DNA of 64,000 nt from Naegleria gruberi (Eukaryota), in the NCBI GenBank assembly GCA_000004985.1, contig GG738903.1; one strand, 5' to 3'. This document shows, in pieces, positions 3,957 through 59,287 of the stretch (position 1 is the first letter of the stretch; each line of letters begins with the position of its first letter). Under the pieces are notes generated by a model, which was not told where the DNA came from, ran no database searches, and was given only the letters and a program-made list of their open reading frames with translations. The position numbers and the translations under genes were made by a program.

Positions 3957-4029
3957 CGCCCACCGTGGGGGTCGAACCCACGACCACAAGGTTAAGAGCC
4001 TTGCGCTCTACCGACTGAGCTAGACGGGC
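3957..4029 (-). tRNA. tRNA-Lys (anticodon CUU)
   Basis: Reverse complement gcccgtctagctcagtcggtagagcgcaaggctCTTaaccttgtggtcgtgggttcgacccccacggtgggcg folds as cloverleaf with T-loop GGTTCGA; identical to copy at 36227..36299. Confidence 0.9.
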
Positions 4030-36226: not shown

Positions 36227-36299
36227 GCCCGTCTAGCTCAGTCGGTAGAGCGCAAGGCTCTTAACCTTGTGGTCGTGGGTTCGACCCCCACGGTGGGCG
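36227..36299 (+). tRNA. tRNA-Lys (anticodon CUU), second identical copy
   Basis: gcccgtctagctcagtcggtagagcgcaaggctCTTaaccttgtggtcgtgggttcgacccccacggtgggcg. Confidence 0.9.
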
Positions 36300-43860: not shown

Positions 43861-44690
43861 TGTTATATATTAGTTAGTTAATAAGAAGTTATTGTTATGT
43901 AATAGTTTACAATAATGGTGTAGTGGTGTGTTGGAGTGAATATTAATTAGTTTAATATTCAATAGATATATAGTACAGAGTAAATATGATACAAGTATGT
44001 GTGTGTTCCCGAAACAATAAAAAGATAGAATGAAAAAACCAATATCGAACACTTCTGATGTTGTTGTTTAGTTTTTTTCTCTTATTGTTTGCTAATGTTT
44101 TAAACAACAGTTAAAAGTTTAAATCCGAGAGATGATGGATTTCAATGGGATTTGGATGGATAACTCTCTAAACCAAGATCTGAGGTAATGGGTTGAATGA
44201 TGGATATTGTATTGATGGAGGATGGTTTAATAATGGGTTGGCTGATAGTGTTGCTAGTGCTGATGATGATGATGTACTGTTTTTGTTGTTGGATTTGGTT
44301 GAAACTGTTCAGAAAGGTCCTGAGATGGCAGTTGTGTGTTGTATTATGATGAGATGTTGAGTTATTGTTTTGTGTTGTTATGCTTGATTTTGTGATGATG
44401 GCAATTGGCATTGGAGAGATACTGAATGTTGATCAATTCCAGTTCATACACAAGAGCATAACAATTGTTGTCATGTTGTTGTTGTGGAAAGGAACGTGTG
44501 TTAGGAGGTTTCGGTAAATTGTTGAAGATTGTTATTGTGGAAAGTCTACTATTTAGAAACAAACATTTCTTGTTAAAACTGAGACAGTTGTAATCATCTC
44601 CTTCCATATGAATGGCAATCTCGCGTTTTTTAAAAAGTGGATGCACCCAACAAATATGGTAAGGAAATTCGTAAGAAAGAAAAAAAGTAG

Positions 44691-44763
44691 TGGAGATGCG
44701 GGGTATCGATCCCCGTACCTCTTCCATGCTAAAGAAGCGCTCTACCATGTGAGCTACATCCCC
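44691..44763 (-). tRNA. tRNA-Ala (anticodon AGC)
   Basis: Reverse complement ggggatgtagctcacatggtagagcgcttctttAGCatggaagaggtacggggatcgataccccgcatctccac; G3:U70 pair present. Confidence 0.85.
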
Positions 44764-54446: not shown

Positions 54447-55562
54447 ATGAGGAGTTTCGAATGGGGAATTAGTAAATTTTATAAAAAAATGTCTGTTCCT
54501 CCTCCACCTGGTGGCATTCCATCAATGCCACTCGTCAAACCTGTTGAGAAAACAACCTCACAACCAAAGAGTAGTTTACAAAAATCTTCACTATCTCTTT
54601 CCGAAGCCAAAACTCATCCTCTCGATATTCCAATTGATTGGTCCAATATTCAAAATGTATTCCTCTCCTCCAATCAAACTTCAGGAATTTTATTTGTTGA
54701 AACTCAAGAGAAAGATCATGTGGTTGTGGTGAAGGCAACCTCAACCATAGCTCAGGAAATTTATGGAGGAAAGATTGCTGAATTTTTGGGATTGAAAACA
54801 CCACAAGTAAAGCTAATGGAATACAGAGCTGATTTTAAGAATCCCATTAAAAAGTATTGGGCCGATTGTAAAAAGTATTTGAAAGAATTTACTGTGAAAT
54901 ATGGAATGAGTGTTGAACAGAGAAAGATTGAGAAGGAGTTGTTTAGAGCTTTCTTCTTGTTGATGGAGTTCATTGAGGGAGCAACAAGTTTGGATGATAT
55001 AATGAGTGACGAAAGTATTGGAAAGTCACTTTTGGAAAATGAGCAAGTTTGTGAGGATTTTGGTGGAATGATAGTGTTGGACATTATTCTGAATAATTGT
55101 GATAGATTACCACTTGATTTGATATGGAATCATGAAGGTAATTCGTCCAATATTCTATTTTCTCCCAAGCTGCAAAGATTAGTTCTAATTGACCAAGCAT
55201 TTATGGCAATAATTAATGAGGGTCAGAAACAGACCTACTTTAAAAAGATAGAGTCTTTCTCAAAATGTTGTTCAGAAGAAACTCTTTCCAATAATCCATA
55301 TTTAGACCAAGTTGTTGACTATATTTACAATTGCACTGGATACAAGATGAGCGATCAAGCAAAGGAAAATATTCACAAAGGAATTTTGAAATCCATCGAG
55401 AAATTAAAATCAATCAATAAGGAAACATTACAAGGATTCAAAACAGAAGTGGAAATGATGAAAACAGGATCAGATTGGGAATCAACGTATTTCAATTCTG
55501 TATTAACTATTGATATTGATTTTCTCTATGAAGCCATTCAAAAGATGACCAATATTCAATAA
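54447..55562 (+). CDS. Atypical protein-kinase-like fold protein (unclassified)
   Basis: HVVVVKAT (beta3 Lys-like), LMEFIEGATSL (hinge-like), MIVLDIILNNCDR (catalytic-loop-like D....N), LVLIDQAF (DFG-like); assignment speculative. Confidence 0.3.
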   Translation: MRSFEWGISKFYKKMSVPPPPGGIPSMPLVKPVEKTTSQPKSSLQKSSLSLSEAKTHPLDIPIDWSNIQNVFLSSNQTSGILFVETQEKDHVVVVKATSTIAQEIYGGKIAEFLGLKTPQVKLMEYRADFKNPIKKYWADCKKYLKEFTVKYGMSVEQRKIEKELFRAFFLLMEFIEGATSLDDIMSDESIGKSLLENEQVCEDFGGMIVLDIILNNCDRLPLDLIWNHEGNSSNILFSPKLQRLVLIDQAFMAIINEGQKQTYFKKIESFSKCCSEETLSNNPYLDQVVDYIYNCTGYKMSDQAKENIHKGILKSIEKLKSINKETLQGFKTEVEMMKTGSDWESTYFNSVLTIDIDFLYEAIQKMTNIQ

Positions 55563-55678: not shown

Positions 55679-57203
55679 ATGTCCAAACATGCAATGCTCA
55701 CAAATTATGGACACAAGCTGTGCAGTTTATTCACCAAAGGATCCCAATTGCAATTCCTTTTGATCAAACGACCACAATTCAGCGACGACAATCGTGGTTT
55801 TGCAATTCAACAAAATGACGACCTGAAAGGACACCGAAAGATTACCATAGAATCAAATTTTCCAGTCGGTGGACGAATGAATAAATCATTGGAGGAGAAT
55901 TATCATGTATTGGGTGGTGCTGATAGTGGTGGTGATGGTCAAGGATTGAAATTCCTTACTCAATCATTGGATGCTTTTGAAAAATGTTATCAAGTGGTCA
56001 ATCGGATGAGTTTGGAAAAGAATGATGAAAGAGTTGAGGTACAAAAAGTGAGCTATCTTTTGGGAAGATCACAAGTTGGGTTGTACATGATAAGGGACTT
56101 GATGAGGGATGGATTGACGACTGAAGAGTTTGAGTCTTCACATGAGTTATATTTGGATAATCTACCAAAAATTGGAATATCTATTGATGGTAAAGATGTT
56201 TCAAAGCTTGATTCGCCATCGATGAGACATGCACTATGGTTATGGCATTTGGAAAGGTTGATTTCCTTTGGTGACAATTTCACAAGGGAGAAACTAATTG
56301 CATTGTTCTATCTCATTATTCACACAATGTGGAATAGAGAACCAACTTACTCTCTTCATTACATGAGGTTATTTACTAATGAATATTCAAAGACGAAGAA
56401 GTTGTACACTAGCATATTGGGAGATTCATTGACGAACACGTGGTCTCAAGTTTTGGGCAGAATTTTCACAGAAAATGAATTTGATAATTTCAATGATTTG
56501 GATAGTGAGCTTCCTGTAAACCTTAAAAGTATGTATCATATATTCTCTGCGTTTATTTCATTTGCAGACAGTGAAAGCATTCCTGTCGACACTTATTTAA
56601 GAGCTTTGGATAAAGAGCAAGTGAATAATCCACTCAACACATACATTCCATTTATGAAAGTAATGATGGAAGATCAATTTGAAGACATTGAAACTGTATT
56701 GAAAATAATGGAGAAATCACCAATAACTAATCATCAAGCTAATGAAAAGAGATATGGAAAGTGGTGGACTATTTTTGAGTGAAAAGCATGAAAATATTGA
56801 GAGAATTAAGGATTTTAAATTCTATCCAGTTCTTTATTGGAAAGCTTGTGCTGTCAGTGAGCCATCATCTGATCGAGATTTGTCAGATATGAGAAATTTT
56901 GTAAAGCAACTTGAATTCTTCTCTGGAATGCCATCTCATTGTAAATTGTTAAATCTCAAAATAATGGATGAATATAATCATGGAAATTATGAACGAGTTT
57001 TGGAAATATTCAACTTCTCTGAAAAGCATTTCCATTCCCAAATCAAAATGGATGATGATTACTGTTCCACTTTTTATGGATGCCAAGCTTTACATAAATT
57101 AGGAAGAAAAGAAGAAGCACTTTCAATAATTCAAAAGAAAGTAACAAGATACGGTTCAATAGAAACATCATTTCATGAGTTGTTTTCAATTGTTAATAAA
57201 TAA
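55679..57203 (+). CDS. Hypothetical protein; two overlapping ORFs (55679..56782, 56742..57203) probably one gene with frame discontinuity
   Basis: ORFs overlap by 41 nt in different frames; no recognisable domains. Confidence 0.3.
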
Positions 57204-57393: not shown

Positions 57394-58738
57394 ATGTTCG
57401 ACAAGCCAACCCACACAATTTCACTGATCGGGCAAACAGGCAGTGGTAAATCAACACTTTTAGGTCAACTATTGTATCAGATGGGATATATTTTAGATGA
57501 ACAATTAGAAGAAATTTCAAAAACTGCCGATAAATTAGGAAAACCAAATTGTAAATATTCCTTCCTGGTCAACTCAACCAGAAAGGAGAGGGAATGTGCA
57601 TCAACAAGTCAATTATCATTTAGACAAGTGGAAACTAAAAATTATTTCTGTAATTTAATTGACACACCAGGTAGGAATTATTTGAATTTATTGAAACAAT
57701 CAAATTTTTGGAATATTGAAAGGAAGTGAAATTTATATGAAAAAAACAATTCGTGCCTTGGCAATTTCGAATACACTAATTGCAGTAATTGATCCGAGAG
57801 AAGTCGAATTCAAAAGGAGCATCAATCGGCTTGATGGAATATTGACACAGTACATGCTTTCTCCCATAGTTACCAGTTCACAAATTATTTGTTGTGTCAA
57901 TTTAATGGATCATCTAGAAATTAATTATTCAGAGCAAGTCTTTGTGAAAACAGTTAGTGAACTTTCAAAAATCTTGAAAAGAACAGGATCGTCTTCAGTA
58001 GATATCATTCCAATTTCTGCTTATTGTGGAGATAATATTGTGGAACTATCTGATAAAACACCATGGTATGAGGGTAAATGTCTGTTGGATGCTTTGAATT
58101 CATTGAAACCAACAGTAAATAATTTGGAACTAAGTTTAAGAATTCCAATTTTGGATGTTAAAAAAATAAGTGGAGTTGGAACAGTTGTTTATGGAAAAGT
58201 TGTAGCAGGGATACTAAAAATGGAATCAAAAATAGTATTGGCTAATTCTAATATTGAAAATGCAAGAATTGCATCTATTGAATCATTTGGAAAGCGATTG
58301 GAAGAAGCAAAATCTGGTCAACTGGTGGCTATCAACTTGCGTAATGTCTTACACAGCTCAATCAAATCAGGAGATGTAATATTAGAGGAAGGAAAATCTA
58401 CTGGTATGGTAACTCGCTTCTTTGAAGCAAATATTTTAAACATTGACCATCCAAAAGGCATTCATCCAAATTACCAACCTACAATTCAATTACAGGCTAC
58501 TCAAGCTAAATGTAAATTGGTTACTATTAAGGAAAGCTCTTGTCATAGGATTTTGAAGGAATATTTTCCCCCCTTTATTAAGAGAAACTATTTAGGAGTG
58601 GTTGAGTGTGAATTAGACAAAGCTTGTTATTTGGATACGGATGCATTTTGTAGATTTTTTATTAGAGATTTTAGGAAGGTGATAGGATTTGGCGCGATTA
58701 CTCGTGTTGGAGTTGAACAAGTTGAAAGTAATAAATAA
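57394..58738 (+). CDS. Highly divergent eEF1A/EF-Tu-family translational-GTPase-like protein, join(57394..57670,57723..58738)
   Basis: G1 ISLIGQTGSGKSTLLGQLLYQMGYI (cf. GHVDSGKST), G3 region LIDTPG-SEIY (PGH replaced, no His), G4 CVNLMDH (cf. NKMD), 52-nt GTAGGA..AG intron restores the eEF1A-like alignment (YMKKTIRALAISNTLIAVID cf. IKNMITGTSQADCAVLII); domains II/III recognisable (ISGVGTVVYGKVVAG). Confidence 0.6.
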
Positions 58739-59287
58739 TGTTTCTAATATTATTATCAAGAACTTTGCATTTACATTTGGTTTTGCTGCCCAAGTCAGAG
58801 CTTTCGGATTGAACAAGGATTTTATTGATACTCAAATCATATATGTGGATTTTGAAGCTGGAATGATGAGAATTGATGCTGAGATTTCCTTTGCTCCAAT
58901 TACAGACATTCCAGTCTCTGTCATTACCAAGTCCTCTGGTCACGGAACTGACTATGTCATTGAGGAATTCTTTAACTGGAACCATGGTTCAAAAGCCATC
59001 CCCATCAACAGATATGCCATTAAAAAGCAATAAACTGTTACAATCAATACATTTGGCAAATCATGTCCACATCATTAAAATTCAATTTTTCATTGAATTT
59101 ATAAATAAAATGTTTTGGAATGATATCAATATCCGAATAGAATAGAATTTCGTCATGCCACACTACATATTTTAATGAGGGAGCACAGCTTTCCATTCCA
59201 TTTATGCTTTGAATCTTGACCACCTTTCGATTATTATTCGAAAACACGGCGTATTCCACTATTTTCCATAATCGAACAAAAAATTCT

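Follow-up and report, generated by a model that had tools for sequence, protein, structure and literature searches.

How far can a member of the EF1A family shed its catalytic residues and still persist as a gene under selection? The question is raised by NAEGRDRAFT_73219, a nuclear locus of Naegleria gruberi at positions 57394-58738 of a 64,000-nucleotide stretch of contig GG738903.1 (assembly GCA_000004985.1; the window). Nearly all translational GTPases have a catalytic histidine; Ski7 is the textbook exception in the EF1A family, and the protein encoded here carries a serine in its place. A sequence-only reading of the window had described a low-identity, three-domain EF1A relative with a 52-nucleotide intron and no N-terminal extension, and had proposed a stand-alone, probably hydrolysis-deficient eEF1A paralog, potentially a pseudo-GTPase or a Ski7-like surveillance factor. 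We consider it likely that the locus is a genuine intron-containing gene from a Naegleria clade of at least three paralogs and that its product is an EF1A-fold protein which, judged by its motifs, would bind GTP yet be impaired in hydrolyzing it.

The gene consists of two exons separated by a short intron:

57394-57670, + strand: exon 1, codons 1-92 and the first base of the Gly 93 codon, containing the initiator Met, G1 and switch I as well as the Asp-Thr-Pro of G3.
57671-57722, + strand: spliceosomal intron of 52 nucleotides, GT...AG, phase 1, splitting the Gly 93 codon.
57723-58738, + strand: exon 2, from the rest of Gly 93 to Lys 430, closed by the TAA stop at 58736-58738.

Excision of the intron joins the exons in frame to give a protein of 430 amino acids; without splicing, the frame ends at a stop codon at 57727-57729. 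Only with the intron removed does the protein align to aEF1A and eEF1A without a break over residues 1-425. The intron occupies the same position, with conserved GT/AG boundaries and an equal length of 52 nucleotides, in two orthologous loci (L001 and L002) from the metagenome ERZ929261 (PRJEB11402), and the introns of the three genes differ by insertions and deletions (indels) whose lengths are not divisible by three. It is also found at the identical site and phase (DAP followed by G-intron-TT GGA TCT) in the paralog NAEGRDRAFT_60891, which is 34% identical. A metagenome copy of this paralog (L003, 70-1080) has an intron matching the codon position and phase of 57671-57722. The sequence-only reading had allowed that another splice site might restore PGH; no alternative acceptor does, as neither the intron nor the sequence after it has an AG that precedes a CAY codon.

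The closest database protein, XP_002671682.1 (EFC38938.1, D2VW20), is labeled 'predicted protein' and is 445 amino acids long. In this deposited model DTP is spliced straight to EQVFVK, which deletes the part between G3 and G4, and a downstream open reading frame (ORF) at 58689-59033 is fused to the C terminus via a putative 44-nucleotide GT..AG intron (VGVEQ to NFAFTF...). We rejected the fusion. Nucleotide homology among the three orthologs stops directly after the TAA, so that 58736-58738 is the true stop and the GenBank C terminus is wrong. The two-exon, 430-amino-acid model is better supported than XP_002671682.1, which should be corrected. The downstream ORF itself (+ strand, 114 codons, NFAFTFGFAAQVRAF...AIKKQ) has no Pfam match, is without a counterpart 3' of the ortholog in both L001 and L002, and lacks an in-frame ATG close to where it begins; the ATG at 58738 belongs to another frame, which stops after 24 codons. 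Synteny 3' of the gene in the metagenome orthologs differs from that in the N. gruberi window.

At the 5' end, the ATG encodes a residue that pairs with residue 1 of aEF1A in the phmmer alignment. There is an in-frame stop 28 codons upstream, without another ATG in the interval, and the stop of the upstream gene is only 190 bp away; the protein therefore has no N-terminal extension.

All three domains of an EF1A are recognized in the 430-residue protein above the curated Pfam cut-offs: GTP_EFTU (PF00009, residues 6-203, 83 bits), GTP_EFTU_D2 (PF03144, residues 245-312, 41 bits) and eEF1A C-terminal/D3 (PF22594/PF03143, residues 325-421, 40/34 bits). With phmmer, the best match in the PDB runs end to end over residues 1-425 (E = 6e-66), and the sequence matches rank as follows:

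Aeropyrum aEF1A, 226 bits.
Sulfolobus aEF1A, 207 bits.
Mammalian eEF1A, 186 bits.
Yeast eEF1A, 171 bits.
Pyrococcus aEF1A, 165 bits.
Hbs1L, 122 bits (yeast Hbs1, 77 bits).
eRF3, 119 bits.
CysN, 92 bits.
EF-Tu, about 50 bits.

Identity is low, at 33% to crenarchaeal aEF1A, 29% to plant eEF1A and 25% to the Hbs1 representative P0249. The TIGR00483 EF-1alpha equivalog has a cut-off of 540 bits, of which the protein reaches 251, and this places it far outside the canonical EF-1alpha family; with NF008969 it reaches 260 bits where 502 are required. As far as sequence comparison goes, the protein is a relative of EF1A proper and not of the Hbs1, eRF3, CysN or SelB type. It has neither the N-terminal extension nor the catalytic His of Hbs1 and eRF3, nor is it more similar to them than to EF1A. 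With canonical a/eEF1A it shares the three domains, the length of ~430 amino acids without extensions, the end-to-end alignment and the 11-residue insertion of the crenarchaeal/eukaryotic type (VEFKRSINRLDG as compared with GEFEAGISKDG). Unlike canonical eEF1A, it lacks the Lys-rich C-terminal tail of eukaryotes. The two C-terminal domains are placed as follows:

58130-58405, + strand: domain 2 beta-barrel, about residues 229-320, with the conserved ISGVGTVVYGKV segment; predicted local distance difference test (pLDDT) mostly around 90.
58418-58708, + strand: domain 3 beta-barrel, about residues 325-421, the fastest-evolving part.

In comparison with the paralogs, conservation is highest in domain 2 (38-41% identity), and its core segment is well kept. 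Domain 3 carries a lineage-specific deletion of four residues, and the canonical HTAH has become QATQ.

The nucleotide-binding motifs of the G domain all lie upstream of these barrels:

57430-57453, + strand: G1 (P-loop), residues 13-20, GQTGSGKS against canonical GHVDxGKS; the GxxxxGKS core is intact and His-Val-Asp is replaced by Gln-Thr-Gly.
57580-57612, + strand: switch I/G2 segment, residues 63-73, RKERECASTSQ; the Mg-coordinating Thr 71 is kept.
57661-57727, + strand: G3, Asp 90-Thr-Pro-Gly-Ser 94 against DxPGH (DAPGH in EF1A), with the intron inside Gly 93 and Ser at the position of the catalytic His.
57899-57910, + strand: G4, residues 152-155, NLMD against NKxD; Leu stands in for the Lys, whereas the Asn and the Asp that specifies guanine are unchanged.
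58016-58024, + strand: G5, residues 191-193, SAY against SA(W/Y); Ser-Ala is invariant in a five-sequence clade of three orthologs and two paralogs.

In switch I, residues 68-71 read CAST against the canonical RGIT, so that Arg-Gly-Ile has become Cys-Ala-Ser and the Gly is replaced by Ala. The G3 motif is DTPGS in L001 and DTPGM in L002, with His absent from both. Leu replaces the G4 Lys in all three orthologs and in this lineage only, as the two paralogs have NKMD and NKME. Further signatures are altered as well: QTREH is LTQYM, SQAD is AISN, and in the DVY/DVF motif Lys has taken the place of the Phe/Tyr, which we take, from EF-Tu:aminoacyl-tRNA structures, to be the aminoacyl pocket residue.

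The G3 His is the residue described as crucial for hydrolysis in translational GTPases (PMC4933942). Two other elements, the Asp of the P-loop and the Gly of switch I, coordinate a monovalent cation that is a proposed catalytic cofactor of these enzymes, in the account of Kuhle and Ficner (2014) as relayed in PMC8244253. All three elements are replaced in NAEGRDRAFT_73219 (His by Ser, Asp by Gly, Gly by Ala), and the G4 Lys of canonical a/eEF1A is lost as well. By contrast, the residues that hold Mg-GTP/GDP are retained, namely the P-loop GxxxxGKS, the switch-I (G2) Thr, the G3 Asp and Gly (Asp-x-x-Gly), the G4 Asn and Asp, and the G5 Ser-Ala. Across the five-sequence clade, at ~33% identity, 9 of 12 nucleotide-binding positions are invariant (G13, G18, K19, T21, T71, D90, N152, S191 and A192) compared with 23% of all columns, for which our own binomial estimate is about 2e-4. 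Loss of catalytic residues with retention of nucleotide contacts is one mark of a pseudoGTPase, a G domain that binds nucleotide but is catalytically inactive, and at the level of sequence NAEGRDRAFT_73219 shows it. The intron, the three-domain alignment, the altered G3 and G4 motifs, the low identity and the missing extension of the sequence-only reading are thus all borne out; the case for a stand-alone, probably hydrolysis-deficient paralog and potential pseudo-GTPase is strengthened by two additional losses, one in the P-loop and the other in switch I.

The paralog clade would have arisen when a gene of the e/aEF1A type was duplicated at the DNA level and the copies then diverged strongly. 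We infer that the protein binds guanine nucleotide and hydrolyzes it very poorly or not at all. Because the nucleotide would be bound but barely hydrolyzed, the protein would remain closed, in a GTP-like conformation, and bind its partner stoichiometrically instead of working as a turnover factor. Candidate partners include a tRNA, a tRNA-shaped protein, the factor site of the ribosome or a partner outside translation; a canonical role in aminoacyl-tRNA delivery would not be expected.

A structural prediction is available for part of the protein. An AlphaFold2 model of residues 94-430, built from a 17-sequence alignment and lacking the first 93 residues, has a pLDDT of 83 and a predicted template modeling score of 0.70, with confident barrels for domains 2 and 3. 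In a Foldseek search of the PDB, the model superposes first on GTP-form aEF1A in complexes with aPelota and aRF1 (template modeling score (TM) = 0.84-0.85) and next on ribosome-bound eEF1A and Hbs1L (TM = 0.81-0.85), whereas GDP-form structures fit poorly (TM = 0.55-0.58, root-mean-square deviation of about 11 Å). The predicted fold agrees with a closed, GTP-like state, which is weak evidence for it.

A known parallel is Ski7 of Saccharomyces cerevisiae, an EF1A-family paralog with the same G3 His-to-Ser exchange (Ser 360 in Ski7, Ser 94 here). Ski7 binds GTP and has no detectable GTPase activity with 80S ribosomes (PMC4933942), and the same working model of bound GTP, an active-like conformation and no hydrolysis is predicted for NAEGRDRAFT_73219. 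This likeness is what speaks for a Ski7-like adaptor in mRNA surveillance, as the sequence-only reading had suggested. Ski7, however, is a paralog of Hbs1 and owes its binding of the exosome and the Ski complex to a long N-terminal region (PMC4933942). NAEGRDRAFT_73219 lacks this extension, scores 122 bits with Hbs1L and 119 with eRF3 as compared with 171-226 bits for a/eEF1A, and belongs to a clade found only in Naegleria in the databases searched, in a genome for which a separate Hbs1 is listed (PMC4342817). With no extension and little resemblance to Hbs1, the protein does not have the architecture of Ski7, and that part of the sequence-only reading is not supported; we regard a surveillance adaptor of this kind as extremely improbable.

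A second parallel bears on whether activity is lost at all. The bacterial EF-G paralog EF-G-2 (EFGII) has likewise lost the His, the P-loop Asp and the switch-I Gly while keeping its fold, but it is a five-domain member of the EF2 family with a reported ribosome-dependent function (PMC8244253). NAEGRDRAFT_73219 could by analogy be a translational GTPase that stays active through substitute catalytic residues, in a specialized elongation or rescue role on the ribosome. The well-preserved overall fold and domain 2 core (GVGTVVYGKV), and the ribosome-competent closed form of the predicted structure, would suit such a role. It is nevertheless unlikely, given the altered switch I, QTREH, SQAD and domain 3 HTAH signatures, the Lys in the presumed aminoacyl pocket and the TIGR00483 score at less than half its cut-off. 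The preferred reading thus remains that of a GTP-binding protein impaired in hydrolysis.

Whether the gene is maintained can be judged from its orthologs. L001 and L002 are 88% and 80% identical to NAEGRDRAFT_73219, and both keep the ORF. Nei-Gojobori ratios of nonsynonymous to synonymous substitution (dN/dS) are 0.72 for N. gruberi and L001, 0.39 for N. gruberi and L002, and 0.31 for L001 and L002, and domain 3 is the fastest part of the protein (dN = 0.11-0.17 among the orthologs). All indels in the coding sequence of the three orthologs are in frame. When the coding sequence was evolved by neutral substitution in simulation, it stayed free of stops in 0.5% of runs with 76 substitutions and in 0.02% with 149 (P = 0.005 and 0.0002). 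With dN/dS at 0.3-0.7, selective constraint on the gene is real, yet much weaker than on a housekeeping eEF1A. The residue at position 94, which is Ser in two of the three orthologs and Met in L002, is not itself conserved. Besides its two orthologs of NAEGRDRAFT_73219, ERZ929261 holds a copy of NAEGRDRAFT_60891 that is at least 90% identical; the two distinct orthologs imply that two or more genotypes or species resembling N. gruberi are present in the sample.

These data also bear on the possibility that the gene is a decaying or functionless duplicate, a nascent pseudogene left by the eEF1A expansion of N. gruberi. Degenerate catalytic motifs, the ratio of 0.72 for the two closest sequences, the unfixed residue at the His position, the fast-evolving domain 3 and the failure of database and literature searches to return expression evidence would all be accounted for in this way. 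The intact ORF in three lineages with every indel in frame, the simulated odds of remaining stop-free, the lower dN/dS (0.31-0.39) on longer branches, the conserved intron boundaries in the orthologs and the nucleotide-binding residues that are invariant across paralogs of 32-35% identity argue against decay, which we consider quite unlikely.

The closest relatives lie in the same genome. A phmmer search of 1.84 billion representatives with residues 94-430 returned the protein's own cluster alone, then a doubled canonical eEF1A and then P0122. The doubled eEF1A was set aside as an artifact of two matched stretches. P0122 clusters with N. gruberi XP_002671928.1 (NAEGRDRAFT_60891; P0270), which is the top match of the full-length query at 233 bits, and P0166 corresponds to XP_002670889.1 (NAEGRDRAFT_60950). 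The two paralogs are 32-35% identical to NAEGRDRAFT_73219, share its MxEKPT N terminus and have no catalytic His. They differ in that their G3 motifs (DAPVGS and DAPANP) lack the Gly too, in keeping the G4 Lys (NKMD and NKME), in having no four-residue deletion in domain 3 and, for NAEGRDRAFT_60891, in retaining the canonical P-loop GHVDAGKST.

In our own neighbor-joining bootstraps, the three orthologs and two paralogs form a clade with 96% support among 72 sequences and 100% among 31. The sequence-only reading had considered that phylogeny might place the protein as an ordinary eEF1A; the trees group it with the two His-less paralogs. A profile search of a 5.8-billion-cluster collection found no further clade members and no named ortholog in another species, so that, as far as the databases searched show, the clade appears restricted to N. 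gruberi-like amoebae.

The origin of the clade is complicated by an archaeal flavor in NAEGRDRAFT_73219, which could mean that the gene was taken from a crenarchaeote as aEF1A and later domesticated. The protein scores 221-228 bits with crenarchaeal aEF1A compared with 192-194 with plant eEF1A and 198 with Asgard aEF1A; its N terminus (M-x-x-KP-H/T) and STLLGQLLY segment look archaeal, and an automated table by Atkinson lists one N. gruberi 'aEF1A'. The paralogs, which are less derived, however do not share this preference, scoring slightly higher with eukaryotic eEF1A (316 against 304 bits and 191 against 184 bits), and for this reason transfer is not supported. A profile of the clade separates archaeal from eukaryotic groups only marginally (386 against 372 bits). 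In neighbor-joining trees under three distance corrections, the clade lies outside Crenarchaeota and every archaeal group, at deep nodes of weak support; gamma distances place it beside eEF1A and P0262 with support of just 31-38%. P0262 is a divergent eEF1A whose best match in a PDB search is yeast eEF1A (370 bits). The archaeal-like residues also occur in Hbs1 and eRF3 and are therefore ancestral states, not shared derived ones. A signature-column test, based on eEF1A-invariant residues absent from archaea, had only seven usable columns and was uninformative.

The surroundings of the gene are those of a native locus. Its GC content and GC content at third codon positions match those of neighboring genes, the flanking genes are ordinary cellular ones (CTP synthase, kinases, RCC1-like, flavodoxin-like and PI3K), and a scan of viral contigs for relatives, which addressed an origin from giant viruses, found none. 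Together with the spliceosomal intron shared with the 34%-identical paralog, the native composition and ordinary neighbors favor duplication within the lineage, and an archaeal source is decidedly unlikely.

The expansion has been seen before. Additional file 2 of Atkinson 2015 (PMC4342817) lists 37 translational GTPases for N. gruberi, with 12 eEF1A, 9 eEF2 and the single 'aEF1A' in addition to separate Hbs1 and eRF3 genes, and the paper already remarked on several highly divergent versions of eEF1A; a 2026 preprint flags an expansion of the EF-1alpha orthogroup. The 'aEF1A' entry is probably one of the three paralogs and an artifact of hidden Markov model scoring. Its presence in a eukaryote is thus probably no evidence of archaeal transfer. 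The eEF2 family, at nine copies, has expanded in parallel with eEF1A (PMC4342817). The eEF1A expansion is thus known in passing, from accounts that did not analyze these genes. The sequence-only reading had called the locus not obviously described, which holds in that no paper found in the literature searches names the gene but not for the divergent eEF1A versions as a group. NAEGRDRAFT_73219 is an unusual, uncharacterized variant within a well-known family, from a genome in which divergent copies of elongation factors had already been noted.

Loss of the G3 His extends beyond Naegleria. Among the 70 EF1A-family sequences nearest NAEGRDRAFT_73219, 23 lack it, with Arg, Lys, Asn, Asp, Leu, Ile, Ser and others as replacements. 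Sequences without the His tend to lack the P-loop Asp too (odds ratio 12; p = 1.4e-5 in a Fisher test that ignores kinship among the sequences). The G1 Lys is present in all 23 His-less sequences, the G4 Asn in 21 and the G4 Asp in 20. Named sources include Anaeramoeba flamelloides and Physarum polycephalum, alongside metagenomic eukaryotes, and Tetrahymena has a divergent eEF1A-like copy that keeps the His and has lost other motifs. Stand-alone examples of ~430 amino acids without the His (PGR, PGK, PGL, PGD, PGN and others), mostly with a degenerate P-loop Asp, are numerous and include P0130, P0148, P0156, P0160, P0168, P0185, P0196, P0224, P0232 and P0240. Two longer proteins contain tandem EF1A-like modules, P0129 (977 amino acids) with DVPGN in the first and DVPGH in the second, and P0180 (1217 amino acids) with DAPGD and DTPGS. 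A dead module may have been joined to a live one in these proteins, or they may be artifacts of gene calling.

The wider picture, of dozens of eEF1A-like proteins without the His and the P-loop Asp in amoebae, slime molds and ciliates, suggests that eEF1A duplicates have repeatedly been turned into proteins that are capable of binding nucleotide but lack catalytic residues, a conversion that has apparently not been described systematically so far. To our knowledge, the GTPase-like region of Ski7 is still not understood. NAEGRDRAFT_73219, as a stand-alone protein that has no adaptor extension and is under selection, offers a cleaner system in which to probe a GTP-locked EF1A.

What such proteins could be for is more speculative. 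The parallel growth of the eEF1A (12 or more) and eEF2 (9) families in N. gruberi could be defensive. As GTP-locked mimics of elongation factors, the proteins could serve as decoys or sensors, sequestering or sensing bacterial effectors such as Lgt1-3 and SidI of Legionella, which act on eEF1A, or they could park ribosomes during encystment. The pattern that might point this way is taxonomic, with bacterivorous amoebae and ciliates among the sources, combined with motifs in which binding residues stay and catalytic ones go. We rate this as very unlikely.

Several observations weigh against a conserved GTP binder impaired in hydrolysis. The dN/dS of the closest pair indicates weak constraint, the residue at the His position varies among the orthologs, and kinship limits the association between His and Asp loss. 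The exchange of the G4 Lys for Leu could lower nucleotide affinity, so that even nucleotide binding is an inference. T. thermophilus EF-G-2, without all three hydrolysis elements, still supports polyphenylalanine synthesis (PMC8244253), and full loss of activity can therefore not be assumed. The predicted structure omits residues 1-93 and may have inherited its closed conformation from a shallow alignment. The protein collection searched contains no spliced, full-length 430-residue product, and literature searches by locus tags, accessions and Joint Genome Institute identifier found no paper naming the gene.

Elsewhere in the window, two overlapping + strand ORFs in different frames lie just upstream of NAEGRDRAFT_73219 (55679-56782 and 56742-57203). 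Neither has a significant Pfam family, and the pair is probably one gene split by a short intron or a frameshift. Two genes upstream of NAEGRDRAFT_73219, the ORF at 54447-55562 (+ strand) encodes the catalytic domain of an actin-fragmin kinase (PF09192, 119 bits), from a family first known from Physarum. The window also contains three tRNA genes, at 3957-4029 (- strand), 36227-36299 (+ strand) and 44690-44763 (- strand), comprising two tRNA-Lys(CTT) and one tRNA-Ala(AGC).

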